A stretch of DNA of 62,105 nt, filler included. It is 3 parts of 3 records of this genome, joined end to end, with 100 filler letters (N's around TTAATTAATTAA, not from the genome) between each part and the next. Parts side by side here need not be neighbours in the genome. Positions count along the whole stretch, not along the records: positions 1 to 30,149 come from DRR378314_612; 2 more parts are not named here. The stretch is one strand, 5' to 3'. Shown one piece after another: positions 1 through 48,077 of the stretch. Numbering within the stretch: position 1 is the first letter of the stretch; every line of letters begins with the position of its first letter. The notes beneath the pieces were generated by a model. That model did not search any database, was not told the DNA's origin, and saw only the letters and a program-made list of their open reading frames with translations. The position numbers and the translations under genes were made by a program.

Positions 1-450
1 CTGCGAACACCGATATTGCTGACGCGCTCTGGTCCTCTTTTGCAGAGCACGTCCATAGCACTCGGAAAGAATGACTGCGACAACAACAACGAAAGAAAAA
101 GTAGCTGTAGCGCTGCCCGCAATGCTTGCTGATACTTAGAGCGGGATTTTGATCAATGTTCCTTCATGCAGATCTCTGTCAACGACGCATCGCGCGCCTG
201 CATTGAGGCAGCTCTGCGCGGGAAATGGCACGGAGCTGTCCTCCCGTGCGCCGTTGCTGGCGTTTCCGTTCTCCTGTCGCTCGCCACGAGTCGCGGAGCG
301 CACGGACCGTTCCTGCTCTGTGCGCGTCTCTACGTTGCGCATGGCATTGCGAAGCTACAGCTTGAGAACGATCCTACACACGAGACGATGTACATTCATT
401 GCGTCGACGCTAGTGTGGGCTGCGCCTAATTGCGCTTCATTGCTACGCCG

Positions 451-3400
451 TTACGCTACGCGCCCGGTCGCGAGGGCAAGCGTTGCAGCTGCGGCTCCGG
501 CTGCGAACGACTGCACGAGCCCAAAGGTCACCGGAGTGCCAAGCACCTGGAACCCGATCCGCGGGTCCAATCGGAGGTCTGCACCGTGCATTGCACCATT
601 AGAAGCGAACCGAATTATTTCATTGGTTTCGCGCTGTGCAGACTCGAGGCGCATCAGTGCGAGCGCTCCGTACGGCTTCTCCAAGCCCGATATTGGGGGG
701 TAGGGGTCGCAAATACAATCCAGCTCACAACCACGAACCACAGGCTTGCTCGACCGATGAGCACCGCGCGCATCGCGCAACGTACGTATCAGGACAGAGT
801 CCAGCAGCACTCTGCTATCTTGATCCATTGGCTCCGAAGCACACTTGTCAATAACTGCACAGGGAATGAACTGCCCGCGTTGTAAGCGACGCGCAAGGGA
901 GCACAGGGTCAGGCAACTGGCCGTGAAAAGGAACCAAAGCGCGCGAGGAGGATCGATGCAGTCTACTGTCGACGGAGGGGTTGCAGAGCTCGCTCTGCAC
1001 TCTGGGACGCGCTCTCGCTTTTCAGATCCCCGTGAACGCACTGAGACCGAAACCCCATCCAAGATACCAGCAAATGAGATTGTTCACGTCATAGCTTACC
1101 TCGAAAGACCGCGTGGAATTTGCGGCGGCCAATAAGCTCGAACCGAGGTTGGACAGAAGAAAGAAGACGAGGAGAACCTGCGGCGCGGAAAAACGCCGAA
1201 GCCAACGCAACATGTTCCGGTGCTTTCCTCAGGATACATTTGCAGTTCCACTGCAGCAGATCCTATCTACAGTCCCATACCACGCCCGTTACAGCAAATG
1301 ATAGAGATGCGCATTCGTACGGGAAGGTACAGCAGTTTTTTTTGGCAAAGTGTGTCTAAGATTAGATGCAGCTGGAACTTCTCACTGCAAGGCAGCGGAA
1401 CGTACCGTTCCCGCCAAAAGCATGTTGAAAGCAGCGGCATCATTGCCTGATAACCCAGTTGCCTTGCCACTGTCGGGCGATGTTACGACGATTAGACTGT
1501 ACCACAGGGACGACAATGAGATCACAACTGCAAATGCAAAGAGTGATAGGTAGCTGCAATGCAGTGTGCGCAGAATCCACGGCAACACGGAGGAGGAAAA
1601 GCCTCAGTTCGCGATTGCAGGAGCAGCTGCAGAGGAAACGGGACTTCATGCGCAGAATTTTCCTGAATAGTCGCACAACGTACCCTTGGATTTTCGACGC
1701 AATTCGCGACATCGTGTGGATAATTTTCATATGCAGTTTCAGCATATCTTGGATGGGAACAGAACCTTGAACGTGCAGCATCAAACACAAAAATGTACGG
1801 ATCTGCGTCAAAGTTCGCTACCTTTCCGACAAGCACATAAACCTGAAATTGCAGAGAGATGCTCTTCCAACGCACACTTGCGCGGTATAGCATAGAAAGT
1901 CGAACCGATCAACTATGTACGAGAGTGCATGGCTGCTCAATAACAGTCATCGTAACAGTTCTGCAAGTGCAGATTGTCCAGTTCTGTGCGAAAACGTACC
2001 GCAGCGAATATCGTGCGCAAGCACCTTCGCCCGGAAGGAAACAAAGGAAATCGCGTATACACACACGAGTGATGCTGTGGAGATGAATACGTTCTGTAAC
2101 GATTAGTATCATATAATGCAAATACAGTTAAATTTTTGTAAAGTAAAGTAAGTCGCCGCAAACTGTGCACGACGGTGGAGTTGTGAAAAAAGAATGCTCC
2201 TTTTTGCCACATGCGCTGAAACTCGACAAAGGAACCGTTTGTCGCAGTTCCCGCTGCAGCACTATTTCCGACTGCAAAATTCCAATACGAGCTCGGAATT
2301 TCCTCCTCTTATTTCTCTTTCGTTCTGAGTAACAACCATGTAGCGTAATGAAAATACCTCACGGCAGAGGAGATGAACGAGACCGCACCTTCCATGTCGC
2401 GGCGAGAATGGTAATGGAAGTCGCAAATACCCGTGTTGACACAGAGTCTGCATGGCACAGAATCTCCTGCATCACAATTACGCTTCCCTGTCATGGACAG
2501 AGAAAAACCCGAAGAACGGGGCATATGAAGACCTGAGGAAGTAAAACGCTAACACGTGTAAGAAGTGACGCGCTACTGGACATCATGAAGCAAGAACAAA
2601 AGGCTTCCCAAGATCTGAGGAAGACGTGCTTCTTTTCCTGGCAGAACGCGCAGCGCGGAAAGCTCGGAGCGCCACGACGCGTGCGGGTTAGAAACAGAGC
2701 GACAGCGAAGTGCACACCGTCCACTCCACGGTATACGCCCAAATAGAGAACACCATAAACTCGAGGTGCTTGTATTGAGCGTGTTGCTCCGCTCGTCTTT
2801 CGGTTCGCTGCGCAAAATCGCAGCCCCGAGATCAGCCGGGGGCATACCATTGCGAAAACCGCAAACGCAGCCAAAATTGAGTGTACTGCTAATCGAGCCC
2901 GCCGTCTGCAAAAATATGCCGAAGGAACACCAAACGTACGTGCGCATGCATATTTGCATGTACCATCAATTCGATCATGACAATACACATAAAGAAGAAG
3001 TCACCAAGTGCATCGAAGCTGATACCTTTCCGCTGCATGGCAAAGCGCCTGCGGACATACATGTAACGTGCAAAGTTTGCGGCGTCCACGTGTGTCATAT
3101 GAACGTGAAATCGGTGCACCCGAAGCCTACGCATCCAACACGAGCACGGGCAAACCGAAATATTAGATACGTGTTCAGTAAGAAATCTTACGCGGTTTTT
3201 TTCTGCGGTTTCATCTGCCTTCCGCGTGCAATGAGACTAGACGCCACCAGCGGGGAATACGGCGACGAGCGAGCAAACGAAAATTCTCAAGTCCTTCCGT
3301 GCGTTGTCGGTGCTCGTTCGAGCGCACGAACGCAGGCCATCGCGAAGAAAGACGTCGCGTAGCGGTCCAACGTACAGCCATATGCAAAACGCGAACGATA

Positions 3401-4181
3401 CGTAATATGATACTTCGAAGGTTGCGAGAGGAAGATCCGAGAACTGCACGCTTGGTTGCTTGCAAGCATAGGAACTTGCAAACGCGAGGCGCGTCTTCCC
3501 AGCGATCAGGACGGCAAAGTCAACTGGCACTGCGCACCAGATGAAGTACGACCATATCTGTACCGACCGCGCGCACAGAACCAAAAATAATAATAGGAGT
3601 TGCCGCCAGATGTATCGTGTGTATGTCAAATCAAGGTTGGACGCAAAGTGCATACAGGGCAGCCCTTTGGCCAAGCGTGGCGCAGAAGAACACCAGCAAG
3701 CGACACGGCGACCGAGCGCACCTTGTATACCAGCTGCGCCCTCGCAGACCGCCGTCGCACGTACGGGCGGCTAAAAGGCAGGAGCGTAAGCAGTAGAAAC
3801 AACGGATACAACGGTTCTGCGGCCAAGTCGCGGCATATTTTGACATTACATGGGTGAACAGGGATTCATACTTTTATCAGTTCCCGGTTGAGCACAGTTG
3901 CGACGACCCTTTCAGAGCACAGCGGTCGGGCTTTCAAGCAGATTCGGAACGGCCGCCAGAGGATATCTGCTTCACGATACTAGTCAGTTTATGCCTCGAT
4001 GCGCGCGCACACACATACCGAATATATCTACAGCACGAGGATCATCCTCCGTTTCATCAGTCTCGCTGTCGCGATGCGCCGTATCCTGATCAGAGAGGTT
4101 CGCGCCCGCGCTTCCGACATGTTCGCTCTCGTCGGCACGGGGCAAGAGCGGAATACCGAGCACTTGACCTGGGCGCTGCAT
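451..4181 (-). CDS. Multi-exon 7-TM protein, gustatory receptor-like / DUF3537-like (7TMIC superfamily)
   Basis: Phase-consistent GT-AG exons read manually: exon ending at 2337, 2000-2024, 1843-1912, 1684-1765, 1406-1553, 1100-1177, 451-870. Joined they give ...YFHYATW-CLRTIFAA-LIGSTFYAIPRKCALEEHLSAISG-SVPIQDMLKLHMKIIHTMSRIASKIQG-YLSLFAFAVVISLSSLWYSLIVV...-VLLVFFLLSNLGSSLLAAANSTRSFE-...RIGFQVLGTPVTFGLVQSFAAG. This resembles plant DUF3537 segments as recalled (SWLYRT..F; EHLRIRR.L..ISHR; L.SA.KITH; GITVFGF.LDR). Upstream hydrophobic exons (PLFLLLTLLPF, WRQLLLLFLVL) and the ATG at 4181 (MQRPGQVLGIPLLP) are less certain. Confidence 0.65.
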
Positions 4182-4535
4182 GCCGCCGCCGCACCGCCGC
4201 GGGGTGGGCTCCTAGTTCCTACCAGATCACGACTTTCAGAATCTTGCGACCAGTTGCCGAGCGAGGATTCATCCGTGCCAATGCGCGCGAACAAATAGCA
4301 ACCCTTTGCAGTTGCTCTGGTGGAGAACGTGGACTGTGCAGTGCAGTAGAAGTCACCAGCGCTGGCTCAGGGCAGCGTTGTCGACTCCGCCGGTGAACGA
4401 GAAGAGCGAAGTAGTCGTGATCATGAGAAAATCTTCATACGAATGGAGGAGGGTGTATCAATCGACTTGTTGACAATTGGCGCAACCCTGTCTGCGGCAA
4501 GGAGCAGCGCTCGTCTGCCATCCTCTGTGCGCGCC

Positions 4536-5565
4536 ATGGATTCTGCCTCCGTCGACACCTTGGGCGCCTGGCGCGGTTATCGGGTTGCCATTCGTCTAGG
4601 TACAGTGCGCAGTCCTGTGCTGTAGTACGCGTGTGTGCAAAGGAAGTGCGTGCATTTGTCGGCGAGTGTCTTCGTGCCGCACTAATGATACTCGTGCGCG
4701 TCACCGCACTGCTGCAGCTGCTGGAAACGATAGCGTGCGCGGGTATGTATACGCTGTCGACGACGACCGGCGCGTGTCTTTGATCGCGCAAGAAAAGGGT
4801 GCAACACTGGTATTTATGGAGCAGATTGTGGATATTCAAGGTGCGTTTCCACTCTACGCGGACATGAAAGCTGTGTAATGGAGCCGTCTTCCGCGGAAGT
4901 CTCGCCGTCTGCGCGCGCATCTGCGCTTGCTCTGGCGCTGCCGCTCTCGTTGTGCGCTCACCTCTGCATGGCTTGTCGCTCGCCGGTCTTGCAGTGGACA
5001 AAAATGAATACGTCACGATTGAAGAGCTAAGGAAGAGACTAGTACCTGAACGCTCTACTGCCTCTGTCGAAGAAAATCGCGAAAAATTGCTGCGCGCTCT
5101 CCGGGAGGTGCGCCCCACCTGCCGCGCTCCCTTGGGAACTTGCGTAGACTCCGTGGGTTGTGCTGCATCTCCTTCGAGGCAAACTTGCTTGCCGCCGCCC
5201 ATTTCTGACCGCTCGGGCGTCGTCTCCGTCATGCCGCTATGCGAACGTGTACAGGCAAAACTTCCGATTGAAGAATTGTCAAATGGGGATGTTGAAGTGG
5301 CGGGATCCGTCCGCGTCCATTCTCCCTACACAGGTACGAGCGACCCTCGCAGGAGGAGAGCTGGCGGCGCGCGATAGGCCCGCAGTGCCGCTCCAGCGCG
5401 CTGCGAATCGCCACGTGGCCAACGAGAATGGTACCGCGCTCTAACGACCATTATGATGCATGTTTTCGTGCAGTGTGTGATTGCGAGAGCTCTGTCCCTG
5501 CAGCCCTCGCGCGTGTGACGACTGTGATGCGAGGTGGTGCTCTCGGCGAACGAACATGCACATGA
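4536..5565 (+). CDS. GEMIN6: Gemin6-like (Sm-like fold plus C-terminal domain) SMN-complex protein, 5 exons
   Basis: Exons 4536-4599, 4718-4840, 4995-5107, 5255-5333, 5474-5565 join in frame. Segments RGYVYAVDDDRRVSLI, VEENREKLLRALREAKLPIEE and VEVAGSVRVHSPYTVCDCESSVPAALARV parallel Gemin6 (GWVLTTDP; LEERKNSLKKWLEKNHIPITE; LCVAGVLTIDPPYGPENCSSSNEIILSRV). Branch-like CTAAT at 4682. Confidence 0.7.
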
Positions 5566-5984
5566 TTTATGGAGTACACAGCCGCTTGGATAAATTTTCC
5601 ACCCTCAAACGCGAGGCAGATGGCATTTCGACGCGAAAGCTGGAGCCAATTACCCGCCTTCCTCCTTGCGCTGAAGACACATACTACTGGAGATTATGCA
5701 ATACAGATTGGCAGTGCAAGGCAACTAGTCTCGAATCTTTGGTTTCTCGAACATGATCTGCAGCACGTCGCAACCAGTGCACGGCGAGGACGAGGGCGTG
5801 AGAATTCCGAGCTTATCTCAACCTCACGACGCGATACGGAATTGCAAGGCTATGGTACCAAGATATCGCTTACAGAAGTATATCAGCTCATACAAAACAC
5901 GTACGACTTCTTTGCAGCACGCGCGCTGATATTTTGTTTTGGTAAGAAACAAGCATGGCGAATAGCGTATGCTGCACAATATTC

Positions 5985-8900
5985 TCAGCGACCCTTTCTG
6001 CGCACAGCAGCTACCGGCGCCGCACGCAGTACCTCGAAATGAAACGTCCGAACGACATCGTGGTGAATTTTCATCGTGTTCATGTCGAGAATATCGGCAA
6101 TCTGCAGTAAATTGCCCAACAAGAAGCGGGGCAGTGAGAAGAGCGCAGCGAGCCTCCGTCTGCGGAGCGATCCGGTCACGCACAGACACAGGGAGCGGAC
6201 GTGGACAGCAAACGGCGGCGCTGGTCCACGTCTTACTGCACGCACCGAGCGCCGCTCCACATCCAAAGCGACGGAGAATCCGCGCTCGGCTAAGACGTCA
6301 AGCGCCATATTGAGAGCGAGAGGATTGTCGAACACCGTATTTTCCGACCGGATGAGAGCCTGGACACAAAAACCACCAACGCAGAGAGTCACCGACAGAC
6401 GGCAACAACGCCAAAACGTATTCGTAAACTCTGATCCACACCAAGTGCCCTGCTCACGCGCACCGCCGAGGTGTAATACATACAGGGTGTGTATGTTTCG
6501 GCCATAGTGAAGTAGGAATACGACGGCAGCAACGCAAAAATGCAGCGGACGTTGATGTTCCGGCAGCATACCTTGCCTGAGAGCGCCTGGCGCCGAATAA
6601 TGTCATAAAACTCCGTGTGGATAACGCGCACAACCTACACAAGCGCAGAACCGGCACCGCGATCAAGCGGCAAAAAACATAAACAAGTGCTCTCAGAAGA
6701 AACAGCCGAACACCTTGGTCAAGTTGCGCCATTTGCGCTATTCATGTATAAGCTGCTCAAGGAGCCTGTCGCGGCGCGCGCGTAGAGAAAAAAAATCATC
6801 TGCGTACCTCTTCAAACAGATCCGTGTATCGAATCGCATAATTGTCCAGTCGCTTTACCAACGCTTGCCGCGCATGCGCCGTCACGTCGTTTGCAGTTGG
6901 CAGCGTGGATATAAAGGCAAATGTTTCTTCGCCAAGCTCGCTGCACAATGTCACCACATGAGAGCAACGCAAATCCATAAGGGTGGAGCAGCCAGTACTG
7001 CTCTCTAATTTCCCGCGGCTGATTCTGAGCGCCACGCGGTCCTCCAGTTCCTTCGGAAATCTAAAGCACTTGGACATTTGCCAAAGTTGCGCGCAACCAC
7101 CCTATGCACGTAGTTTCCCATTGCAAACGGACGTACCGCGATGACTGATACTGCAGTTCGCGCTGCAGATTCTTCTTCACGTCGTCCACAGTCCCCATCG
7201 CATTGATGAAGTGAAAGTGGAAGTGCTGCTGCACCACCTTGAGTGCGTCATAAATGTGCTCCTTGAACACTCGATAGCGCCGTCTTGAAAAGAGAAAATA
7301 AATAAATAAGCAAATCACACATCGCAGACGCATGAAGGGGAATTAAACGAGAACACAATTTTCAGATCCTCTAGGGATGGAAACGAGGGATCCCCAAGCC
7401 TCGCCCTTGCACCCGATCCGCTGTGATTCGCACGACGAGCAGTGGAAACTGCACCGCCGCCAGGCTCGCCGCGCACCTGGCCGTTTCTTCGTCGGAGTCC
7501 GTGTTGCGAACCTGTTGTTCGGAACCGTGTCCCGCCTCGGACACAAAGCGATTGTGCCTACGAGTTTCTTCACCGCGACTAAGCTGACGGTGGACAGACT
7601 CTTCTTCGTCTGCGCGAGAAAGCAGGAGGACATCGATTCGCCTGTTTCACTGGAAAGCGCCTCTTACAATATGCACCTGTGAAACTTGCCCACAAAGTCT
7701 CTCTGCGCAAGCTTAATGGAACAGCAAGCACGCAACGGTGGTACCATGATGACTTAATCGTTCATTTGCATATGCGTACCAATGAAGAGAACAGCTACGT
7801 GAAAGATCGGACGCCGAAACTTGGGTCCGTATGGAGTCCGCAAATAGTGCTGTCGCAGCCACGTCATCTTGTCGTACAGGAGTTTCATGCATTGTGCCTG
7901 AAAAATAAAACAGGAAAGAAACAAGAGCCAGCAGTGTTAGCCAAGACGAATGCACATAGCCTTTCTGTCCCCTCTGTGAGTAGCCTGAAAATTATGGGCC
8001 TAAACGCTCGAGAGGGCCGGCAAGCCGAAGTACTCTGCATCTGCAGCCGCACCTGCACGGGAGTGCGCGGAAAGCCGTCGACAATCGCGCCGTTCGTATG
8101 GTCCTCGTGCAGCAGCTCTTCGAGCAGGACCTGCAGGACCTCACGATCGCCGACAAGGAGTCCTTGCGCCATACGCTCTTTCAATTCCGGCCTTTGGAGA
8201 AGCGATGACGTCACAATAGGTTCTGCAGCGATTTGTCGCTCTTGCATGATGAAGGGGGATACCTGGAACGTTCGGTCCGGAGAAACGCGAAGCCACGACC
8301 AGGCTGTCGGAACGTATTCCAGAGCAACTGACCGTGTATCGCATAGGGTCTACAAATGCCTTTCCTGATCGAAACTCCGACAGATAAAGGGGAATTTTGC
8401 GTTTGATCTGTGTATTTCCTTGTCGAACCCCCAAAACATGCTCCAGGAAGAAATAAAGTCGGCAGTGAAGAACGTACCGTTCCCTTTCCCGCTCCAGGAG
8501 CACCCGCAAGCCAGATTATCTCCTTCGGGAAGCATAGATTCTCCAATCCGTACTTGGAAACTAAATCCTCCCACGCTCTGCACAGCATACATGGAATCAA
8601 TACATATTATTATAAACACAGCATACCAGTGAAATGCATCCGCAGCGCGAACTCTTTCGCTGCGAGGCAGCGAACCACGCTTCCGCCATCCTCCTCCTGC
8701 TTGCAAGGAGGAGCGGGAGCGTAGGAGCGTGCGAAAACGCGTGCCACATCTCAACCGCGCACCCAGCGAGCACCAGCGACGGAAGTTGCTCGTTCGACTG
8801 CTTACTCACTCGTAAAGGACCTCCTTTGTACTCAAGGTATGATGCACTAGGTCGAGCAGTCAAGCGAAGCTCGGCGGCACCGAGTTGTGCGGGAAACGTG

Positions 8901-14050: not shown

Positions 14051-17000
14051 TCACCATGCCGACGACAGAGCGCTCTCCAGCGCCTCGATATCATCTGCGG
14101 GAAGAGGCTTGATTTCGCGTTCGTAGTACCCTTCAATTTGGCCAAGGATCTTCTTTGACCGGCTGATCAGCGAAAGAGCAGGAGGCAGCGAAGCCAACGC
14201 AGAGTAGTGAGTACACAGACTGCTGCCGTATCGCAGTTCCGAAACGCGCACCAGTCGCGACCGCGTACGTGTCCCGTTCACTATATTATGCCAACGTTCA
14301 GCGAAACACGCCACGCATTGGAACAGCCCATGCAGGTGTAAAGCGCCCACAAACGCAATGGTGTGGCGTACACAATCACTCTGCTCGCAGCGCCGTACCT
14401 GTCGTGCACGAAGTTCACAGCGACTCCCTTGCGCCCAAATCGGCCCGTACGAGCGATACGGTGAAGATACGTCTGCACGACATTCGCGCACACGGCCACG
14501 CAGCCACACAGCAACAGTTCAATACAAAGAGGTTGCGCTAGGTTCGCAACGTCCTGAGATTCTTGGCACGCCCGCTGTAGGTCAGGATTACGACAAGCAC
14601 ACAATTGGCGAAGCGGCCGAGTAGTCCTCCTCTATTGGAAGTCCGTTGTGGATTTGGGGGGGTGATAAAAGAGTTCAGAAGCACGGAAACAGAAGTATTG
14701 CTCAACGTAGACGCTGCGCCGACCGAGTGAGACCCACACACACAGAGGACTGCCGCTGCATAATTTTGTCATGAAGAACAAGCGCCAAGAAAAAAAACGA
14801 TGCAACGTGGTAACCAGGGGAAGAACTATGCAAGGGGAAATTGCGGGGCAGCAGCAACTCCATGGCCGAGAGAGATCGAGAGCGAATCCAGACTGCAACA
14901 AACCTCGTAATCAGGATCTCCTGTTTCGTTGTTGACAGGAAGGTCGTAATTCACAACAAGTGACACCTGGAGTGGAGACGAGGGTGTACATTATATCATA
15001 CATGAGTTGTTCAAAAGAGTGGAGAAGAAACTGGTTTCTTCACGCGTGTTCACCTCCCAATATTCGGCATTCTGCGGCAACAATATGCGGCGCCGTCCCT
15101 TGGTCGGCACAATCCTGGCAACGAGCAGCACAAAAAAGCAGTGCCCCAAACGCTCAACCCAAAAAAAACACTCAGCAAATGCACATTTTCGCACCTGCGG
15201 GACATCGATTCCTCGCGCGAGAACGTTGGTCGTGATGAGTACTTTCGTCGTTCCGTGGCGGAACTCGTCCTGGAGACGAGAAACGATTCCGAATCCAATA
15301 ACCTAGTGAGTGGGACTTCGGAGCACCGCAGCGAATCACTGGGGAAACTCTCACGCTTTCGTGCAAGAACACATGCGTGGCGTATCTGGCGCGCTCGCTA
15401 AAAAAACCTTCCAGATAACGAAAACGATCGACATTATGCGTTGTCATCGCGCACCAGGGAGTTACGAATGATTTGACACCAGAATCTCGACAAATGCAAA
15501 AACGATCATGACTGCGTGCACAACGTGTGGCATCCGCTGGAAAAGGGCAGAATCGCGCTCCCGCTCGAAACACCCAGCACAATAAAAGCCGATGGTGCAC
15601 TGCATGCCAAGAACGATCGTTTGTGCGCAGGAATCGGCGCAACTGCCTGAGAAACGCCAGTGGAGAACGAAGCGGCACAAACGTACCATTGTCTTATCGC
15701 GGACTTCTGACGACATGTCACCTCCGTAAAGCACCGTAACTGTGTGACCCTCCGCACGCATCCGCTCCGTTACGTCCTGTGCAGTACGACGTGTCTAATC
15801 ACGGCAAAAAGAGAATCCGCGAGTGACGCAGTGTGAGATTCTCTTTCAGCGGTCGCGAGGGCTCCCGCTTCTCACAGGCGATTCGCGCACACGCTACACA
15901 GAGCGTTTGAGGAACAGTAGCCCGTGGGAGTCACGCGCTAGCGCGCTCGCAAGCCAACAGGCCAGCACACATATATATCGACAGAAGCTCGCAGGAAGGA
16001 TGATGTGTCCCCATCTCACGGGAAAATGACGGCAATTCAGCCATTTTCTGCACACGAGCAAAGCACCTCGTCTACAGCAGTTGTGCGCGCAACGGAGCCA
16101 CATTCCTGCGTATTCACTTCAGCACAGCAATATGCTCATAGCTCCGCACACACTCTCCAGCTAGCGGAGCGCAAAGCATCGGCGCGCGTTGCTGGATTTA
16201 TACATCAACCCTATGGGTAAGACGATATGGTGTGTAGATCGCAGCGTGGGCAGTGACATTCGCAGAAAATTGCAAGTGCAATCAACCCCACGGAAACACA
16301 CCTCGACGAAAATGATACTTTGCCCTCCGGAGAGCGCGCCATACATGTCCGAGAGCATTTCAAACTTTTTCGCTTCCGAATCAAGTTCCACAAAGTATTG
16401 CTTAATTGTGTCCAGCGACAGTCGTTCTTTCTTAACGAAAATTTTGTTCGGATGCTCCACATTGCGTTCGGCAAAGCGCTTTACGTCGTCACGGTACGTT
16501 GCAGAGAACAGCAGAGTCTGCCGCACCCGAGGGGCAAGGGGAACAACACCAAGCAAAGTTCCGCAGCCATACTCCCGATGAGATAAATATACACACAAAT
16601 CTAGAATGCAGTCACCACGAAAAGGGAATTGCACACGGCCAAGCGCACGTCTCTGCGTACGCACAAAATTTGACGAAGCGTTGGCGACTTCCCTCGAGAA
16701 TCCCGAGAGACACGACGCCCACAGCGAAACAAAACGACGAGAAAAGCACCGAGTTCCTCCTTCGACGCGCGCCCGTAGTGGCCTGTAAAGCTAATTCACA
16801 CACACGTACTTGGCAAGTTTTGGGTACCAGCTTCTTGAGCCGAAGCGTTTGATCAGCCATTCCTTGCATATCCATCATCACGTCTGCCTCGTCAAGGACA
16901 AACACGCGAATGCGCTTCGTCTCGAATTGCCGGGCCTTGATCGCTCCCATGACACGCCCAGGAGTGCCGATAATGACGTGCTCCTGGATTTTCTGGGACT

Positions 17001-17988
17001 TGGGAATTAAGACATCCTTCACCAGACACAAATTGGTGATCGAGGAGTACTTGGACATGTCCCGAACTACCTGCGCAATCTGCTTCGCCAGCTCGCGCGT
17101 CGGACAGATGCACAGCGCCTACAAACAGTCGATCCGTTCCATACATCACAAGAACCATTCATGCCATGGTCGTAAACGAGGCATCGTAAGGAGGCAAAAT
17201 TTCAGGATTAGTAACTTGTGAGCGAAGACACTGCGCGCGCCGACGGACAACGAGCTTGCAGAGGCCGGAAGCACGCGCTTCCTCATACACAAAAACATTC
17301 GTAGTTTCGCCATTTCAAAGCACACTTCAGTTCGCACCCCCTATCGCCTCGCTTCGTCCGCTGCTACTCGAGTGCGCCGACAGCACGTCGCCCAGCTGCT
17401 GTACCAGGAGCGCACCTGCGGAGAATTCACCGTCGTGTCGACGCGACTCAGCATGCCGAGCACGAAGCACGCCGTTTTCCCTGACCCGTTTGCAGCTTGG
17501 GCGATGAGATTCTCAGGCGGGTTGCGGAGGATCAGCGGCAGGGCCGCTTCTTGAATACGAGACGGCTTGGCGAATTTCATGCCGTATACACCGTCAAGGA
17601 GCTCTTTGTGCAAATTGAGCTCCTCGAAGGATTTTGCCGAAAAGAGCGGCGAGTTCGGATCGCGCTGCATGACCTGCACCTGCGCCTTGTGGTCTTCCGG
17701 ATCCAGTTGCGAGACCACAGCATTCTCGGCGAGCTGCTGCGCGATCGCATCCGCTTCGGATACCGCCTCTTGATCTTCATCAGGTTTCGCTTGTGAAGTG
17801 TTCTTTGCCACAGCTGAGCTGGCCTCTGTGATTTCCGCAGCATCACTATCGCGCGCAGTGGGCTTGACGGTCGCCTTGGCTGCCGGAGGGTCAGCTCCTT
17901 TTGCAGGAGCGGTGGTCTCGGCTCCCTGTCGGGTAGCATCCGTTCCTTTCGCAACTGCGTCACCCTTTTCTGCCGAAGAATTGAACAT
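14051..17988 (-). CDS. DBP5: DEAD-box RNA helicase DBP5/DDX19 (mRNA export); multi-exon
   Basis: [19 protein letters not shown] (DBP5 signature), Q motif KPSRIQE, motif [45 protein letters not shown]-terminal [21 protein letters not shown]. Confidence 0.95.
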
Positions 17989-19260
17989 ATTGGATCTGCC
18001 ACGATCAACCCCGGTCTGTAATATGTATCAAATCACAAGCGAGAAAATAATACTACGATGCCCGAGATCTGCAAGGGGAAGAGCGCGAGTACGGCAACAC
18101 AAAGTCGACGACTTGAAGCACAGGGATCAGGAACCGAAAGAACGGCTCGTTGGCAACACAACCGCACACACCGCGAGGATACGAGCATGATTCGTTCCCA
18201 GAACGCGGTCACCACGCTCCCAGAACGAAGAATTCTCTATCACAGCACATCTCATTACGGTGTTTGTGTGTGGCTCGCGCGTCGCAAGGATGTGCTGCGA
18301 AAGAACGCCCAACTGCTTGGCTCTTGGGACTCTTCGCGCACTCTCGCCACTCGCAGGAAGGGGCGACGAACACTTTCTCGTACGCACAAGCAAGCGCGGC
18401 TGCGCGGAAAGTGGCGCGCCAGGAGAGAAACAGGAGAACAAAAGACGCGAGCGAACGCTTCCGCCTATCAATGTACAAGAAATCATCAAGCGAGATATGA
18501 GGAAGAAAAGAAAAACAAGAAGCCGCATTTGCTGCGTCGGTACTGTAGAAACTGCAGCTGGCGAGCTCTAGCAGTCGGAGCTTATAGCAACGTGCCGCGC
18601 TCAAGGGCGAACGTGGCTGCCGAGCAGCGCAGCGAGCACGCGCCTACCAGCCGGCACGGAAAGGAGCAGACCGCCACAGCAACAGATTTGAGCGCATGTC
18701 ATCGATACACCAAGAGCTACACGATGCAATATCAGAACGTACCGCGACGTGCGCACCGACGGGTGACAGCGGTCCTGCTCACTGCGCGCGGAGCGATGCG
18801 CACACAGTGCAACAAGGGCGGCGCTCCTGCATTCATGATCAAATATAATTTTCAATCTTTCTGTATAAAATATTAGAATATAATATTTGAACAAGGAGAA
18901 GCTGGGCTCCTCGTTGCTAGCAGAGCGCGCACGGCACGTTTGGCAACGCTCTGGCACCAGTGTAAGATTTATTCGTGTGTCCCTGTGCACTTTGCTGCAA
19001 TTTTGCGCACATTTCCATGCATTGGTGCTGAGCACACGTTTCTTGGTGAGCAGAAGGAGACCATTCTACGGCCGGGTACCCCCTCGCCAGCGGCAGGGCA
19101 AGCAGTCACTTGCGGGCGAGCACGACAGTGCGGCAAGCGCAGCGGCAACCCTTTGCCAGGGCCGCTGCCCAATCCAAGCACATCGGCTCGATACGAGGGG
19201 CGCTTGGTCCCACTGTAGTGGTCAGAAAGAGTGAAAGTATTACGCGAGAAGGATACGACA

Positions 19261-30149: not shown

Positions 30150-30249
30150 NNNNNNNNNNNNNNNNNNNNNNNNNNNNNNNNNNNNNNNNNNNNTTAATTA
30201 ATTAANNNNNNNNNNNNNNNNNNNNNNNNNNNNNNNNNNNNNNNNNNNN
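30150..30249. other. Artificial contig-joining spacer (N44 + TTAATTAATTAA + N44)
   Basis: Exactly 100 bp. The 12-mer at 30194-30205 provides stop codons in all six frames. An identical spacer lies at 48078. Confidence 0.97.
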
Positions 30250-30335: not shown

Positions 30336-33300
30336 ATGGAGATTCGACCACCTCAGAAATCATATCCAATATGCGATGGGGACACAGTAGCGTTATACTG
30401 TAACGCTACTCGAACATTTCTCGGTGTTACACCATGGAGGTTCGTTTCGCGCAAGCTGCAATGCTATTGAACACATGCCCGTGTAACGTTGTCACGTTTG
30501 GATCTTGGCACGCGTTCGCGCACAGCGTACAGAACTCCGTGCCCTTTGATCCAAAGGAAGCTGTGTTCTTGTCACAACCGCATCCACTTGTAGCTCATCT
30601 TTAGCTACGCGATACTTGTTTGTCGTTGGATACGACGTCATCTGCGCGCGCACTTGCTCGTTTTTGGCGATTCCCAGCAAATCGCCCTCAGAGCCCTCTG
30701 CACGGACAACACACATAGCTGGCCACCGTGCCGATACTCCTCCTTCGTTCGCCCCAGAGCTGTGCGCTGCCAGCTCAATGATGTACGCGGCCTCGATTAG
30801 AAGTACAGAAAATGTTCATCATGAACCAATGGTCTGATAAGCAGATTCCGTAACGATCTGGAGGGTATTTCCCGTTCGTGTGGAAACAAAGACGCCGGGC
30901 AGCTCAGATTCCCTTTTCGCCCGCAACAAAAGATTCCTACGGGAACACGACACGCCAGCACATCTGCAATGTATCTTGTGTCGCACGCAGAAACATGGGG
31001 CATGCATCGCAACGAAAGGATGCCGCGCACGGTGTCTCTATTCTGTAAACTATCCACAGTAGCCACAACAAGAGTGTACAGGTACATTGCATCTCAGTTT
31101 GGGCAAGTTGCTCGTACCGTTCCCCGCTGGTGTGCAGCATACAGTAGAGTACCACGCTTGCTACTACGGGCCTCGCGCGCCCACATGGCACATTCCCTGG
31201 AACGCCCACGCAAGGCGTTTGGCCATTCGTGAATCCCAACTCCGCTTGACTGCAAATGCAGAGATTCTCGCGTCGAGTGCATTCCTCTCGATACGATGGC
31301 TCCTGACGTTGCTGTTGCTCCGTACGCGGAAGTCGATAACAGCAGTTCGACGCGGAATACCATTCCCTTCCCAAGCGATGTTGACGCAGCACTGTTTCGG
31401 ATTTCCCTTCACGTGCGTTGATATGGTACCCCTGTGCTGAGGCCGCAACAGCATGACGGAGTGCCTCGCCGATTTCAGTAACCGTATTACTGAGCAAACG
31501 ACGGCGCATCACCGGAAGTTTGTGCACAATTAGGTTACGGTCGCGGACGAAGTAGAAGTGATGCACGTTGGCGTTCGACGCGCATTGAGCTCCGAGGCGC
31601 CAGCATGTGCCGTTCCTACCTCACCGCAGCACGCGCCGCGGAGACTGATCGTCTGCTTGAGCGCAAGTGAAGTGCCACAACGTTCTCACTGAAGATCCAA
31701 ACCTGAATCTATAAACACTACACACCGTTGTCACAAGTGAACGAGCGGGCGGGGCAATTTACCATCTTCTTGCTGTACACGTCCGTGCAACGCTGTCCAG
31801 CAGACTCCAGGAGAACACAGGCAATCGGAAGGAGGGCCCCTCAATCCCGTGATCTCGGCGCGTGCGCCACGCTCACCCATCTCCATAGGATGCAATGTCG
31901 CGTTCACACACATTGCAAGCGAAAGTATCTTGATTCCCCAGGTCGAATCGCGCACCGCGCGCTCTGCGCCGGAGCCTGCGAGTGCGTGCCAGGAACGGAA
32001 ATCGGTCGCGCTCTTCGCGCGCGGAGCCCCGAGTGCCGCTTCCTCGTCGCTGCGCATTACTGCCAAGTTCCCGCACCATGTGCGACGAGGCGAGCCACTC
32101 GAGTCCGGAGCAGAGATTGTCATAGAGATGCCACAATGGCAGGCGTATGTCGGTATTGAACGAGGTCTAGTCTGTGCGATACGATATCGGCACTTATGGA
32201 GTATAGTGCGGATCCGGAGCTGTGCAGGCGATGTGCTGCAGAGAAACCAACTGCGCGGGCTCCAACGGGTTCGCGTCCTCGAGCTATCCACACAGGGCTA
32301 CATTACTGCCGCGAAACGCACTGGGGCACCTGTGATGGAAGGGACGAATGTCAAGGAGTATTATGCCGTCCTGCAACGCGCCCACGACCACAAAGCAAGT
32401 CGCTTCGGAAACCGCCTTCGTGCCGCTGCGTTTTCCTTCAACCTCCGGCTTCGGCGCAAGGCCGTCCGCAGCGCAACCACGGTCCTCCGCATCGAGCGTG
32501 TTGGAATCACTGACGCACAGGGCGAGCTTCAGCCCGACGAGCCCGTGCGAATTCGCCACCTTGCTACTGGAAGATTGCTGGCAATCGATAGTATTGACAA
32601 TTCCACCCGCTTTGCGCATGCGCGCGAGCTTAATCAGCACGGCGGTACGCTATATATCGCGTACGTGCGGCTTAGCAGCCGAGAGAGTGGCCAGCCGCTC
32701 GCTTTGGAAACTCTCGACCGCCGGCGCGCTTCCGCCGCATTGTACGCATCGTTTCACAGCGAGCCGCTCTGCCGCGCTTTGGTATCCACAATGACACACC
32801 ACAGCGGTGATACATCTGGGCATGAAGTTGTTCCCGCATGCAAATGGGCGCTCGTTCCGGCACCTGCAGGGGGTGGTCAGACAGCGCAGCATCTGAGCTG
32901 CGAGCACGACGCAGAGCATCACGGCTACGAGCACGCGACAGAGGTTGGAGCGACCGCACTCGTGTGCCATACCTGCGCGTCAGCAGATCGCCAGTTCGTA
33001 GTCGAGCGGTTCGAAAATTCCAACGCCTCGCAAATCAACCAGCTTAAAGACTTGCGACGCGCGTTCCAGGAACATGCAAAAGAGTCCTACCCAATAGATC
33101 GAGTGGCTGCGCTCCTGGAAAAGATGCACTTGCTTGTCACTGCTGCTACCGAGGCCGGGGGTGCGCACGTGGCACAACTGCAAGAGGAGGCTCGCGAGTG
33201 GCGTCTCCTGAGTGCGATCTTGAAACTCCTGGGACCTCTGGTATCGTCAAGCGTGGACACGAGTGGCGATGGTAATCACCGTCACTGCGCTTCCGCCCTC

Positions 33301-36300
33301 GCGTCGCTTGCCTTCCATGTGCTGTCACTCCTCTGCTCCGGGTCCGAGAAGAACGCCCTTGTTGCAAGTCACTTCACGTCGGCAATCGGCGCGCACGCGT
33401 CCCTGCCGCAGCAAAGCAATGCACCGCAGGAACGACAGCCTACGTACGTTGCGACGATTGACATGTGGCTATCCAGATCTCTCCCTGCCGCTTGGCAACT
33501 GATGAAACACCTGCTGCAAGTTCCAAGAGTGGGTGCGTCGACAAGAGTGCCGGTCCTCATGGCCCTGGCAAAGCGCTCCCTTGCCGTTGGACGCATCCCA
33601 GCGTGCTTCGACGCTCTCCGAATGCTATGCAGCTCAGAGCACCGCCCCGTTGAGCACATCCAGGCACAAGTTGCAGATCACATTGCCAAATTCTCAGACT
33701 ACCTCATTGCCGTTGAGCAAACGTCGACGGGAACTGTGTACGCATCAATCGCGGTACGTGTCATCGGCCATCATCAGCATTGGACGATCGTAAACTACCG
33801 CAAAGAGCGCGAGGAAGCGGCTGTCTCCCAACAGCTGGCACGGGCACCGGCACATAGTTCCGCTCAATATTTCTTCACTGCCATTTGATACTCTGTCTCC
33901 ACTGTACTCTATATGTTGCTGTTTTGCACAGCATCTGTACGCGCCGACGACAGATCGGTTTGCGACAGAGCAAGTAGCGCGTTTATTCAAAAAGGGGCCA
34001 AACCCTGACCTACCAGTCTCCATTATCAGCCACAATTCTTTCTCGCGCGCCCTGTCATCGTATTTCTCACTCGCCTGCAGAGCGACCGAACAGACGAGCA
34101 GGACAGCAACGATGCTCCCGACGTACCAGTGCGGCGGCTCAAGCTGCTTCGAATTCGAGAGTTGCAGGAGAAAACGAGACAGAACCGTGCGGCGGCACTT
34201 CCGCCCGCGGCGCGCATTGCTCGCCAAAGAGGGAAATCGCCACGATCCAAGGACAGCTCCAGCGTGAATGCAACGGGCCAAGCACAGGATGGCAACACAG
34301 ACCGGACACACACTTTCGCACACGAGCAATCTGTCCAACGCGAGGTGGATACTTTCAATGAACCCGATTGGACGCGAGAAAAAGGACGCGCCACACCTCT
34401 TCCACCAGTTCTCCCTGGAGCTACGGTCCTCAAGGGAAGCATGCGCGTTGCGGCATGCGACACCATTCCTCGGAATGGTGAAGAGGCCGACAGCCTTCGC
34501 GACCAGTTGGCATCGCAACTTCGCTTCTTTGCAGCACTTTGCGACGCCTCCAATGCACATGTCAGGGAAACACTGCGCAATATTCAGTGCTCACATGCAG
34601 CGCTCCTGCTTGATATCGAAGCTGTTGTTGCACTCGTTTTGAATCCGCTGCAGGGGGCCACCGAAGACATTGTCGCAGCATGCGTGGAGTACTTGACATC
34701 CGCACTGATACCGCTCGTTCCTCGGTCGCCGGGAACTTCCTTTCTGTGGAGCTCCACAGCACTTGTCTCCCATCGCGACGAAAATCCACAATCCACGTCC
34801 CAACATATACCTTCCGACGTGGATACGTCAGTGTCAGCCACGCAATCAGCCAACGTGTCCCCAAAGACAAAACTTGCGCGCGCGGCTCACGAATCCGACA
34901 GCGTCGATGCAGGCGAAAGTCGAAAGGCGCCGCGTTTACCGCCGCCAACAACCCCAGAGCGTTCAGTGCAGTCACCTTTCGGAAACCATACGGTCCACGA
35001 GGACAATACTTCTCCTTTTGACCATGCTTCAACGTACCTCGACGCCGCTACCACCGCCATCACGCGCATGCTAAAACGCGTGAACAAGGCGGAAGTCGTA
35101 TGGGCAGAGCAGCACAGGCAGCGCCAGCTAGAGCTCCCTAGCAAGGACGACGACAGCAAGAAATCGACTCGCTCCCCACGCAACGGCAATCATGGTATTG
35201 TACCAACACCGAGCACGCTACACCCGCGCGATAGACGAACAGAACCTTGCATGTGTTTTGTGGAGAAGGCGTACACGGGCCCAGAGGGTGGTCCCCGGGA
35301 CCCCGAGACGGAAGAACGCACACAGGCGCTCCGCCTGCACGGCGCGACGGCCAGGTATCTCGCGGCGCTGGTCCGCGCACGTGGCGCTCCCGGGATCTCC
35401 ATCCTATCGCAAGAGACCATCCAGCAAATTGGGCAGTACCTTGGATCCTCTCATTGCTGCACTAGTTGCAGTGATGAAGAAGTGGTGGCGTGTTCCGAAC
35501 AGGCGGCCGTGGGCTTCTTGTCCGTCCTGGCTCACCTTGCCGAGGTTGCGGCCAAAGAAACTGCGCTGCAGGAAATGCGCCAGCGCATTTTGCCCGACGG
35601 AACGCGAGCCTCGCACCCTGCATCTCGAATCGAATCCGACGTTCAGGCGTTCCAAAATCTTGTGTTTAATACCGATGTGTCAGTGCGCGCTTCGCTTCTC
35701 ATGTGCGCCACACAGCCCGCCACACGCTGCAAACGGGTGTCCGTGCGCGGAGCCGAGACGAACAATGCAATCGACAGCAGCAGCACTATCGGTGGCTCAG
35801 ACCCACGGTCCTGTATTCGTCATCCAGACAAACGTCGTGACAGCTCTGCTGATCCTCCTGTGCCAGCAAAGCGGATGCAGGAGCGCGCACCAGCAGGAAA
35901 CCGCCCGCACACATTGCACTCAGCGCCGACTCGCGCTCCCCGCAGCAGGAAACCCGCGCGTGTCGTACCTCTGACGACTGCCGCTCTGTCGCAAGAGATG
36001 CCGTTCCACAAATCCTCGCAGAGCAGCGAAACGGAATACTTTGCACAAGCGGATGTCTTATCGATATGCAAAGGGGCATGTACAAGCTCTATCGATCTTC
36101 GCTCGTGCACGTTCCGATCGTGCCTTGACCGGCTCGAAGGCGATGCCTTGCCGGGCTCACCGCTGGCGGCATCCTGCTTCCGCCTTCGCTCGAAGATAGC
36201 CCTCCTCCCCAGCTTCTCGTGCGCTCGCGTTATCCAACGATCTGTATTCACGATAATTCGGCCAAGCATTCTCCGCGTGATCCATCAGGCGCGCCGGGAG

Positions 36301-39300
36301 CTGGCGTACGCAATCGCTCGTGCTCCTGACGTTAGCGGTGACAGCGCAGCATTCGCACGCCTGCGCGAGGTCGTGGACCTGCTCCCGATGGTCACGCTGC
36401 ACCCGCGTGACCGCATGCTTCGCACGACTGGACATGTTGAGGATGCATGCGACCAGGAACCAAATTATCACAGAGAGAAATCGTCATGTGGCACACAGCT
36501 TCACTTTCCCAGCGAAACTAGAGATGCCGAGGCAAAAACGGAAGGCGAGAAAGTCGTTGCGGCGCGAAAACCACCATCGCATCGCACCATGTTGCCGGCG
36601 GCTGCCGCCGCCGCAGGCGAGCTTGCTCTGGCTGTGAGTGCAAGCGGCCTCGTCGATGATCTTGTCGCACTTCTCCCCACAGCGTATCAGAGACCCTTAT
36701 GTTTGTGCCAGTTTGTTGTTCTTGCTAGCGCAGCACTCGCACAGGCTGACTCTGCAGCTGCAATGTGGACGACCGCCGTCGAGCCGCTCCTCCATCTGCT
36801 CACGTCGCGCCGCCGGCTCGCTCCAGAAGTTTCCGAGTCGCTGGTGGATCTACTGCGAATAATTGCGTCGAAAGACGCATGGGCTTGTGCGCGCGTCATT
36901 TCGGATCTGCCAGAGCTACTCCAATATGCGTCACGGCAGATGGGATACTGGAATCGAGCATATCACTATCCACACAGCGGCGAGGGGCTGTCGGCGGCAA
37001 ATGAGCCGCGTTGCGACCGTAGGTCTACAATCGCATTTGCTCGTTGTTCCCTGCTGGAGCTCTGCACCGTCCTGATACCCCACTGCCCCCACACACTCGT
37101 CCAAACTATGGTAGACCACTTCAAGCATCATTGGGCTCAAGTGGAAAAGTCTTTGGGAGAATGGAGCAGGAACGGTGTGGAGGAAGCGCCAGCCGCTCGC
37201 ATCTTGTTGGCTCTCGCGAGCCCGACGCCGGGTAGCGCGCATGCACTGGCAGGAGCAGAGCAGCGCGAAGATTCCGAAACAGCACCACAAACACAACAAC
37301 GCATCCAATGCTCCTCCCAATCTCCCTCAACTCTCATATTTCGTGCAACAGAAGCGTCTTTGGCTATGCTACGCTTCTGGACCTCGGTTGCAACGGAGAA
37401 GAAAGGTGCCCTCCTTGCGCACAAGGAGCTCTCCATCGACGACATCGCACTGGCACTTCTTCCACCGGCAGCAGTGGGGAGACTGCCATGGCGCATCACG
37501 ACAGCGCTGCTATCCTTGGCCACGATCTTCTATGAGAAGGGTATAGATAAGTACCAAGCCAGAAATTGGGAAAAGACGGGGGAAGATCGAGGTGCGGCAC
37601 TGCAGCTGCTGCAGGTGGCGGCGGCAGTGGTAGATCGTTGCGCGCTTGTGGCTGCTGAGCAGCACGGGAGAGCGAGCACGCACTACGCTGCCGCCTCTGC
37701 TCCTTGGCCTTCCACTGCTGACGAATGTGCTACTATGACATACCCGGCTGTAGCTTTGATAGGGACCATGATAGCGCCACCATCAACTCGCAACAGCTCT
37801 CCATCGCGCGCACGTATCATTGGAATTGCGATCGACGCCTTAGCCGATGCAGAGAGAGCATTCCGCATCGCGCGCCAAGCATCGCGAGGGACTTGCGAGG
37901 AAACAGGCGACAAGGGAGAGCATACGCCGCTACCGTCTGAGAGGACCCGTCTTTCATCTACACCCTCCAGTGCGCCTGCAGCAATAATGCGAGTACGAGA
38001 TACCATTGAGAGAGTTTTCGCATCCATAGATGCATGCTCGCACCTCCTCTTCTCCTTCCTTCACGAAGAGAGCACTGTGAATGCCGAAATAGAACCCCTG
38101 CTCTCCCAAGCACGCAGTGCCGTGAAGAAAAGACACTCAATTCTTCACCCTGTCGAGGATACGAAAAATGCTTCACTGCCAAACGTGGGTAGAGAAACTG
38201 GTACTACGACAATGGGAGTAGGCGACCAAGGGCTGCAAACAAGGGCCGATGGAGTCAATGCGGAGGAACAACGGGAAGGACAAAATGGTATAACAGCCAC
38301 CGAACTGGTAGACCTGGCAGATCACTTGCGACCCAACATTCTTCGCTCTCGAACAGCAACCAGTGATCAGCACAAAACCTACAGTTCATCAGATGAAAAC
38401 AGCGAATATTTTATTGCCGGAGGTCTGGCAATAACGCTTGTGTGTCTCGCGGCACGCGACTGTCACATGGGTCTCCAGCTCCCCGACCGCGACAAGAGCG
38501 CGGAGAGCGCTGCAGCCCCCATTCAACGCGCCCGAGCTTACGACAGCCTGTCACGGAAACAACGAAATGCAATACATCGAACTGGTCAAAATATTGCTGC
38601 AGCTATCTTCAACGATTGTATACGACAGGATTATACCGGATTGTCCTCTATTGCGCGGCAAAGTCCTTCGGGCGTCAAGCTCAGTTTCGCTCCTGCGATC
38701 GACGTTTTTACATCCATGTACAACCAGGCGGCTTCCCCAGGTACTCATAATAGCTCGTTGACGAAGTCTATGAATAGCAGTACATCTATATTTGACACCG
38801 ATAGGATTTCCAACGCTGCTGTGGCGAAAAATACTTTGGGAGGGAAACAGCCGAATTGTGCCGATAGCAAAGATGGCAGCTGCGTTGCTGAAACAGCGGC
38901 GAGGTGGCCACTGGAGCACACTCTGGCGCACTGCGCCTCGTTGTTGCCCCCATATGCGACAGCTGACCCTCAGAGCGACACAGTGCTGACCATTTTGTGT
39001 ACAGCTATAGGTACATGTGACGCCATTGTATCACAACGCGCTTTTGCGCGTGTCGGATACGATACTGTGGAACGGCTGTGCTGCGCAGTGGTGGCGCAGC
39101 TCGCGCGCGGGCGCGGCGAGGTCTTGCTGGCATCGCTGCGCCTGTCCCAACGCATCCTTGCACACTGGCGCCGCCACGCTCAAGAAGCAACTCTGTGTGC
39201 CATGAAAGAATATTTCAATGTCCATGATCGCATAGCACTTATACTATCAACTTACGATGACATCGTTGTGGATGGAGACCTACACAACATCGATGGATCA

Positions 39301-46340: not shown

Positions 46341-48077
46341 CTACACTTCACGAAAGGGATCTCGCGTCCGACAATCATCGGAGTCTACACCGCAAGCTCC
46401 TACGCAGCACCTCTCCTGCCGCACTGCAACGCAGGAAGCATCGCACCCACACCGGGTGGAACCGAGTGCGCACAACATCCAGGAGTCGATCGCGCGTTTT
46501 TTTAATACTCGCCGCTCATTTTTTCCCTTGCCCCGACGACGATCGCCGCCGAGAGACACTGCTGAGACCCTACGAGCCTCGTCGTGTGGCACTGTGACGC
46601 GTACTCCGTGTGCACACCGGGCGCGCGCCTCGCACCTCTCGTTCAGCTCGAGCACAATGCGCTTCAGCTCCTCCTTGTCGGCCTCTTCCTCGGCGCGCCG
46701 CGACTTTGCCAGCACGGCAAACGTGTGGTCGCTCGGCAGATCGACCTCGCGGACCACCGGCCGGTTGTTGCGTTTTGTCACCACACGGAACGTGACTGCA
46801 GCGGCGCTGCCGGTCGCTGCTGGTGCCGCGGCGGACGCGCTCGCCGCGCGCTGTGCGAGCCCGATCGGCGCCGCCATCGCATCGAGGCGGCTCGCAGCGC
46901 CGCGCGGCGCGTCCGCCGACTCGCGGAGCATCGCCTCAAACGCCTCATCGAACGCAGCATCGTGCACAGGTCCGCGTCGTCGACGCACCGCGTCCTCCTC
47001 ATCGTCGTCCTCCTCGTCCTCCTCGTTCGCATCGCCATCACCACCGTCAGCACCTTCATCACCATCATCCGCACAGCCATCAAACGTTGTTCCGGATGTA
47101 GATCGACCGCCACTGCCGTCTGACGCCGTGCTTTCAGTCCCGTCTGCGCCGCGGTCGTCGTCGTCATCGTCGTCATCGCCGTCGGCCTCGTTGTAGTCGT
47201 ACTCGCCTCCCTCGCCTCCCTCGCTGGCATTATCCGGCTCGTTCGCGGCAGCAGGAGCGCGCCCCAGCTGGCGCTCGCGCGCAGCGAACGCCTCGGCGAT
47301 TGTTGGGAGAGTGCGGATGCGGCCGAGGACTTTCAGCGTCTGCGGCGCGTCGGCGATCTCGAGCGCGTCCTCGAGCGCGTGCCGCGCCGCCGGCGACAGA
47401 GGCTGCGCGGCCGCGCGAGCCGCCGCCGCAATCGCTGCCAGCCGCCGCCTCCGGCTCTGGCCAAGGGCGAGCGTCTTCTGTGCAGCGGTGAGAAACGCAC
47501 CGACCATTTGCAGTCGGCCGCCGCGGAATCGCTCCGCTGCAGCTTCCGCATACGAGCGAGACAGGTCCGTGACGCGCACTGCAGTTCCGGCGCCAGGCAC
47601 CGCGGGCGCGCCAGCTGCGCCTGGCGCCGACGAAGATGCGCCCTGCAGCGCGCCGCGCTCGTCGAGACCCAGGAGAAGACGCGCAAGAATCGAGAATGCT
47701 GCTCCAGGTGGGAGCACGCGCGCGCGAGCGAGCTCGCCGAGCAGTGCGCAGTCCGCCACGCCGCGCTGTGCGTGCGCAGTCGCGCCGCCGGCGATTCGAA
47801 ACACGTCTGCAATCAGCATATCGACCACCGAAACAATGTCCACTGGCCGGTACTGTGCCAGCTCGGTGATCACACCCGCAAGTGCGGGAATCAGCGTAAA
47901 CCGGTACTTGTGGGGACGCGCAAGGCGACGCACACAGTACCCGCGCACTGCACCGTCGCTCCAATCGAGCTTCCGCAGCTGCCGCGCAACGCCGTGGACG
48001 CGCTTCGCCGAGAGCTCCTGCGTTTCCCACGCACACAACCGCATTCAGACGCACGCAGAGCAAAAGTTCCCAATACG
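46341..48077 (-). CDS. UPF2: Nonsense-mediated decay factor UPF2, 3' part (third MIF4G domain, acidic region, UPF1-binding domain); truncated by contig end
   Basis: ARQLRKLDWSD...VVDMLIADV...LLGEL (MIF4G-3), a long D/E-rich linker, and VTFRVVTKRNNRPVVREVDLPSD...EELKRIVLELNER (cf. FVMLTRKGNKQQ...MKKLTLDINER). The exact 3' end is uncertain (possible intron after ELNER). Confidence 0.85.

Follow-up and report, generated by a model that had tools for sequence, protein, structure and literature searches.

A 12-exon minus-strand gene encoding an orphan 425-residue polytopic membrane protein, possibly a very divergent member of the 7TMIC superfamily

A spliced gene on the minus strand of positions 451 to 4181

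The window analyzed here is a stretch of DNA of 62,105 nucleotides (nt), filler included, in which three contigs are joined end to end. Its first contig (positions 1 to 30,149, DRR378314_612) holds the gene under study, which lies on the minus strand and runs from an ATG at 4181 to a stop codon at 453-451. The initial annotation, made from the sequence alone, had placed both ends of the gene correctly and had read between them seven exons encoding a protein of the seven-transmembrane ion channel (7TMIC) superfamily, that of the insect gustatory and odorant receptors (GR and OR). As that annotation had also stated, the gene is invisible as an open reading frame (ORF): its largest coding exon measures 182 nt, and neither strand of the region 451-4181 has a long ORF. 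Between stop codons, the minus strand offers at most ORFs of 210, 177, and 169 residues, all of them mixtures of exon and intron.

Transcript evidence came from a single public sequencing run, X1, the only run that carried the locus. X1 contained 41% of the words sampled from positions 300-4500, and all nine of its contigs over positions 1-8000 matched at ≥99%, being identical to the window. The label of this run, "RNA?", is a guess; its RNA content is shown by its spliced contigs. Eleven stretches bounded by CT..AC on the plus strand are missing from these contigs; read on the minus strand they are GT..AG introns, which results in the 12 exons given below. After permitted shifts of the cuts, GT..AG boundaries were present at 11 of the 11 introns, with donors that are mostly GTACGT or GTATGT. 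Since X1 has seven more joints over positions 1-8000 beyond those listed, isoforms other than the 12-exon form may exist.

Exon 1, 4019..4351, minus strand: 5' untranslated region (UTR) of at least 4351-4182, then the ATG at 4181 and with it the first 163 nt of the coding sequence, for an acidic tail of about 55 residues at the N terminus (X1 contig 4019-4351; joint 4019 to 3816).
Exon 2, 3722..3816, minus strand: 95 nt; Pro-rich short hydrophobic segment at residues 57-70 and an Arg-rich loop (joints 3816 to 4019 and 3557 to 3722; GT..AG).
Exon 3, 3376..3557, minus strand: 182 nt; hydrophobic segments 1 and 2 and their connecting loop (X1 joints; frame).
Exon 4, 3061..3126, minus strand: 66 nt; loop rich in His and Arg (joints 3125 to 3375, cut +1, and 2905 to 3061).
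Exon 5, 2848..2905, minus strand: 58 nt; first part of hydrophobic segment 3 (X1 joints; GT..AG; frame).
Exon 6, 2389..2487, minus strand: 99 nt; end of segment 3, short loop, and weak hydrophobic stretch to ...ATWK (joints 2486 to 2847, cut +1, and 2093 to 2389).
Exon 7, 2000..2093, minus strand: 94 nt; hydrophobic segment 4 (joints 2093 to 2389 and 1763 to 1998, cut +2).
Exon 8, 1684..1765, minus strand: 82 nt; amphipathic helix LKLHMKIIHTMSRIASKIQ (X1 joints; frame; hydrophobic moment 0.62, the maximum of the protein).
Exon 9, 1406..1553, minus strand: 148 nt; hydrophobic segment 5, short loop, and start of segment 6 (joints 1553 to 1684 and 1175 to 1404, cut +2).
Exon 10, 1100..1177, minus strand: 78 nt; remainder of segment 6, to ...LLAAANSTRSFE (X1 joints; GT..AG; frame).
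Exon 11, 786..870, minus strand: 85 nt; loop preceding the last segment (joints 870 to 1100 and 578 to 786).
Exon 12, 345..578, minus strand: last 128 coding nt (GFQVLGTPVTFGLV and the Ala-rich last hydrophobic segment), stop codon 453-451, and 3' UTR to at least 345 (X1 contig 345-578; frame).

Joined, these exons give a coding sequence of 1,278 nt, a single open frame of 425 residues, while the two remaining frames of the joined mRNA are filled with stop codons; upstream of the ATG at 4181 there is a stop codon in the same frame. Because a frame of 425 codons stays open through 11 junctions, for which chance is not a credible explanation, we conclude that the gene is real and spliced; it is transcribed and was previously unannotated, and its host is a eukaryote with spliceosomal introns. 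The protist and the flagellated microbe of the initial annotation go beyond these data. A transcribed but nonfunctional locus, either a gene in decay or a spliced noncoding RNA with a spurious ORF, would fit with the failure to find homologues or a paralogue in the window, and also with lower-depth unspliced contigs over 1737-2027 and 2459-2807. Nevertheless, the open frame across the spliced junctions and the regular way in which hydrophobic segments alternate with charged loops in the product make this explanation very improbable.

The unspliced X1 contigs over introns of the gene, 1737-2027 (depth 9.1) and 2459-2807 (depth 5.8), compare with depths of 21-33 for the spliced forms and could stem from pre-mRNA, from retained introns, or from DNA carried over. 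The final three introns have phases 0, 0, and 1; conserved intron positions near the 3' end are a feature of animal GRL/Gr/Or genes. The last intron (579-785, minus strand) has 207 nt, or 69 codons, and keeps the frame without any stop codon, so that ORF 451-1083 runs across it. Keeping it would add 69 residues to the loop preceding the last hydrophobic segment with the frame intact; no retention of this intron was seen among the joints listed for X1.

The initial annotation had proposed that its exons be confirmed by RNA sequencing, and the spliced contigs of X1 do support a spliced minus-strand gene. The strand was read correctly; the number of exons is 12 instead of seven, with exon 870-786 and five exons between 3816 and 2389 having been missed. 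Its junctions 1684|1553 (KIQG|YL) and 1406|1177 were recovered among the X1 joints, exons 1553-1406 and 1177-1100 (LLAAANSTRSFE) hold, the peptide LKLHMKIIHTMSRIASKIQG (-YL across the junction) is present in the spliced protein, and the terminal GFQVLGTPVTFGLV is found at 555-514. The 25-nt micro-exon proposed at 2000-2024 has a genuine donor at 2000 and is really the 3' end of the 94-nt exon 2093-2000. It had been translated as CLRTIFAA, whereas the actual frame of the 2024-2000 region gives ...AKVLAHDIRC. The donor at 2000, believed to be spliced to 1912, is joined in X1 to 1765, which is also the actual start of the LKLH exon that had been set at 1747. This leaves "LIGSTF" (1912-1895) in the intron, and therefore the TM3-like string "ATWCLRTIFAALIGSTF" (TM, transmembrane) is absent from the transcript and is an artifact. 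The lesson is that micro-exons spliced by hand need transcript support, and the practical yield is a corrected, RNA-supported 12-exon model of an orphan membrane protein.

Hydropathy and charge along the protein

The layout of the protein was obtained with our own scripts, which combine a TopPred-like hydropathy scan with charge counts and are crude in comparison with a trained predictor. Residues 1-56 form an acidic tail (14 Asp plus Glu versus 4 Lys plus Arg), followed at residues 57-70 by 14 uninterrupted hydrophobic residues that prolines flank and break. This first segment contains Asp, Glu, and three Pro and has the lowest score (1.11) of the eight segments called "certain" by the scan; the loop after it is 16 residues long and Arg-rich, with 6 Lys plus Arg. 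Seven strong hydrophobic segments were then observed, at approximately residues 87-106, 133-148, 173-194, 207/222-241, 281-303, 318-347, and 400-420, leaving a C-terminal tail of 3 to 5 residues. The scan also returned one "putative" segment, and the count comes to seven if this belongs to a long TM4 and the weak first segment is a re-entrant "TM0". Overall, the gene product is a polytopic membrane protein of 425 residues with no relatives detected in exon-level searches.

The Lys plus Arg residues are distributed unevenly across the membrane, at 22 versus 10. This bias orients the last seven segments, placing the loops between segments 2-3, 4-5, and 6-7 inside and the C terminus outside, and the side of the N terminus hinges on whether the weak first segment spans the membrane. 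If TM1 to TM7 are the last seven segments, the presumed inner loops measure 24, 39, and 52 residues, against 26, 12, and 14 for the outer loops. Hydrophobic stretches 4 and 6, of 35 and 30 residues, are long. The top amphipathic helix of the protein (residues 257-278, moment 0.62) leads directly into segment 5, and in the loop preceding the last segment, Pro/Gly breakers come after a helix-like stretch.

These features bear on two other readings of the protein. First, it could be a lineage-specific polytopic membrane protein of a different fold, undescribed or unrecognized, for example, one with eight TM segments and both termini outside, acting as a transporter, scaffold, or enzyme. Eight segments do pass the "certain" cutoff, and the charge rule then places the acidic N terminus (14 Asp plus Glu versus 4 Lys plus Arg) outside; the absence of a TM7 motif and of any kind of relative in the exon-level searches also fits. 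However, the first segment, with only 14 uninterrupted and proline-broken hydrophobic residues, is short for a full span, and the long inner loops, the amphipathic helix leading into segment 5, and the C-terminal position of the last helix are what a 7TMIC template predicts. We regard this reading as a serious contender, nearly as likely as membership in the 7TMIC class.

Second, the protein could be a divergent member of another seven-TM family with the N terminus inside and the C terminus outside, such as the PAQR/adiponectin-receptor-like hydrolases, which would make it a metal-dependent membrane enzyme or a receptor. PAQR proteins share this topology and rely on conserved His residues; the overall topology class is the same, and an inner loop of the present protein is rich in His (RVHRFHVHMTH). 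Nevertheless, no such family was matched by exon-wise Pfam scans at E values up to 10, and the loops here are long, while PAQR-type families have short loops, so that we consider this assignment improbable.

Homology searches and surroundings of the gene

The queries used in the homology searches were short single exons or ORF 454-870 (exon 11, the in-frame intron, and exon 12). Because such queries are short, blanks are weak evidence of absence and show only that there is no close relative on record. Pfam scans of one exon at a time at E values up to 10, covering all exons but exon 5 (11 of 12; exon 5, with 19 residues, is too short for a scan), gave no 7tm_6, 7tm_7, or DUF3537 match; the two matches in all were at chance level (E = 0.2 and 3.3) and to unrelated families. 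Likewise, Pfam scans of 12 stop-to-stop ORFs from both strands of the locus yielded only two chance matches (E = 0.13 and 0.78), both to the same plus-strand ORF. In a word-indexed protein library, exon 3 (60 residues) drew 22 candidates, none of which scored, and ORF 454-870 drew 2,874, none at E values up to 10.

An exhaustive phmmer search of exon 3, a query from the N-terminal half of the protein, against 1.84 billion representatives gave P0001 as its sole match (E = 2.6e-4). P0001 is a Cys-rich tandem-repeat protein of 2,144 residues in which exon 3 was matched in 11 repeats, and it was rejected as a relative. Sequence searches of the PDB with exons 3, 9, and 12 and ORF 454-870 resulted in 1, 1, 0, and 12 matches, respectively, by chance only; the 12 matches of the ORF are designed trefoil proteins, rejected with mainly intron-coded residues aligned. 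Moreover, nothing usable was found in the ESM Atlas with exons 9 and 3, scans of metagenome contigs with exons 3 and 9 yielded no confirmed relative, and there was no paralogue within the window, the top non-self tblastn match having an E value of 0.70. Rfam gave no match on the window.

A plus-strand neighbor gene lies head-to-head with the gene described here, at approximately 4597-5757 and beyond, the observed transcript ends being no more than about 250 bp apart. The joints listed in the X1 contigs include four of this neighbor, all GT..AG, and Pfam scans of its ORF pieces gave no match. Elsewhere in the window, pieces of a DEAD-box helicase occupy two adjacent frames at 16615-18027 on the minus strand (E = 2e-16 and 9e-8), and a Upf2 domain (E = 1.2e-18) is found in a 567-residue frame at 46344-48044, also on the minus strand; both loci are ordinary eukaryotic genes. 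On the plus strand, open frames of 715 and 1,966 residues, both very long, lie at 31741-39906 and have weak, sub-threshold MIR and RIH_assoc matches (E of about 1e-3), which suggests a gene with giant exons for an IP3/ryanodine-receptor-like channel. The putative 1,966-residue exon found no relative in the word-indexed library at E values up to 1e-5.

The gaps at 30150-30249 and 48078-48177 are linkers of the form N44-TTAATTAATTAA-N44 that put a stop codon into each of the six frames, the first of them (30150) being preceded by a (GT)n run. As the window is an artificial joining of three contigs, adjacency across these linkers is biologically meaningless. In the third contig (48178-62105), closely packed genes without introns lie for the most part on one strand and encode an MFS protein, GST, FAA hydrolase, homogentisate dioxygenase, FAD monooxygenase, a metallo-beta-lactamase-fold protein, MarR, and TRAP DctP/DctQ. 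The HgmA (homogentisate 1,2-dioxygenase) encoded there is 94-95% identical to Halomonas/Vreelandella proteins, and from 48178/48182, right after the linker, the contig is collinear with Halomonas/Vreelandella genomes L001-L003 at 78-88% nucleotide identity. This contig is bacterial, not eukaryotic, and most likely stems from a co-cultured or contaminating Halomonadaceae bacterium.

Comparison with the 7TMIC superfamily

Benton 2020 (PMC7746228) kept as 7TMIC candidates proteins of 350-500 residues with seven TM segments, an intracellular N terminus, and inner loops longer than outer ones, provided that reciprocal BLAST tied them to a known member or that they resembled no other family. The protein described here, with 425 residues, falls within the length range of about 350-500, and its intracellular loops exceed the extracellular ones under the charge-derived orientation. 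Hydrophobic stretches of 35, 23, and 30 residues and the Pro/Gly breakers before the last segment would likewise be compatible with the fold, as far as sequence can tell. According to the same paper, the re-entrant N-terminal helix of 7TMICs is often mispredicted as an additional TM segment, giving a false outside N terminus, and this warning describes the behavior of our own scan (eight segments, N terminus outside). The layout appears to agree or to be compatible with the 7TMIC template, and an eight-TM protein with its N terminus outside would fit equally.

Several points speak against placing the protein in this class. Taken at face value, the best topology of our hydropathy scan has eight TM segments and both termini outside. 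A regular-expression search for the TM7 motif of animal GRL/Gr/Or proteins, (T/S)Yhhhhh(Q/K/E)(F/L/M), found no match even with Y to F allowed, the best offsets matching two of the four positions, and the exon-wise Pfam scans returned none of the models of the class. One of the four sequence arguments of the initial annotation, the TM3-like string, is a splicing artifact, and a layout with seven TM segments and the N terminus inside is not exclusive to 7TMICs. The initial annotation had itself remarked that an Ala-rich tail replaces the TM7 hallmark of animal GRs, and both the missing motif and the Ala-rich last segment were borne out. Benton 2020 (PMC7746228) describes this motif as diagnostic but not definitive and as largely unrecognizable in DUF3537. 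The Himmel 2023 preprint (10.1101/2023.08.30.555482) gives approximately 15% identity across 7TMICs, and a lack of sequence matches is therefore expected; both works describe the N-terminal half as the least conserved part of these proteins.

Weighing these points, we tentatively favor the protein as a very divergent member of the 7TMIC class, which seems the most likely single reading of its sequence although it falls well short of being established. The gene, its splicing, its open frame, and the layout of hydropathy and charge are observed; the 7TMIC fold, oligomerization, channel activity, and a chemosensory role are only what we infer. Under this model, an acidic N terminus would lie in the cytosol, and the short Pro-rich segment would form the re-entrant TM0, followed by seven membrane helices. 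The cytosolic extensions around segments 4 and 5 and ahead of the last helix would build an anchor, and the last helix would line the pore of an oligomer. A bolder and rather unlikely version would make the protein the founder of a highly diverged 7TMIC family, new to the class and belonging to a eukaryotic lineage unsampled by the searched libraries, with an Ala-rich pore helix replacing the TM7 motif; the 207-nt intron, if retained, would add 69 residues to the anchor loop, giving two channel isoforms.

Membership in the class would not be surprising. The initial annotation had considered 7TMIC members sparse in unicellular eukaryotes, which is out of date, as the Himmel 2023 preprint (10.1101/2023.08.30.555482) reports thousands of microbial members. 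If the fold is confirmed, the protein would be another 7TMIC of a unicellular eukaryote without recognizable sequence similarity and would help to map the divergence of the superfamily.

Compared with known systems, the protein resembles eight-TM and other orphan polytopic proteins in having eight segments above the hydropathy cutoff and no relatives found; unlike them, it has a short, Pro-rich first segment that seems better suited to a re-entrant loop than to a span. With plant DUF3537 proteins, as described in Benton 2020 (PMC7746228), it shares the lack of a recognizable TM7 motif and a long third intracellular loop (IL3), its 52-residue loop before the last segment being the longest; however, it gave no DUF3537 match in the exon-wise Pfam scans (11 of 12 exons). 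It differs from the class-A eukaryotic 7TMICs (insect Or/Gr, animal GRL, plant DUF3537, and unicellular Euk7TMICs), which Benton 2020 (PMC7746228) and the Himmel 2023 preprint (10.1101/2023.08.30.555482) define, in the lack of exon-level matches to members or Pfam models, in the absence of the TM7 motif, and in its Ala-rich last helix. With these same class-A proteins it shares a length of 425 residues, a weak N-terminal segment followed by seven strong ones, IL1 to IL3 placed inside by charge, inner loops longer than the outer ones, an amphipathic helix leading into segment 5, and a last helix at the C terminus.

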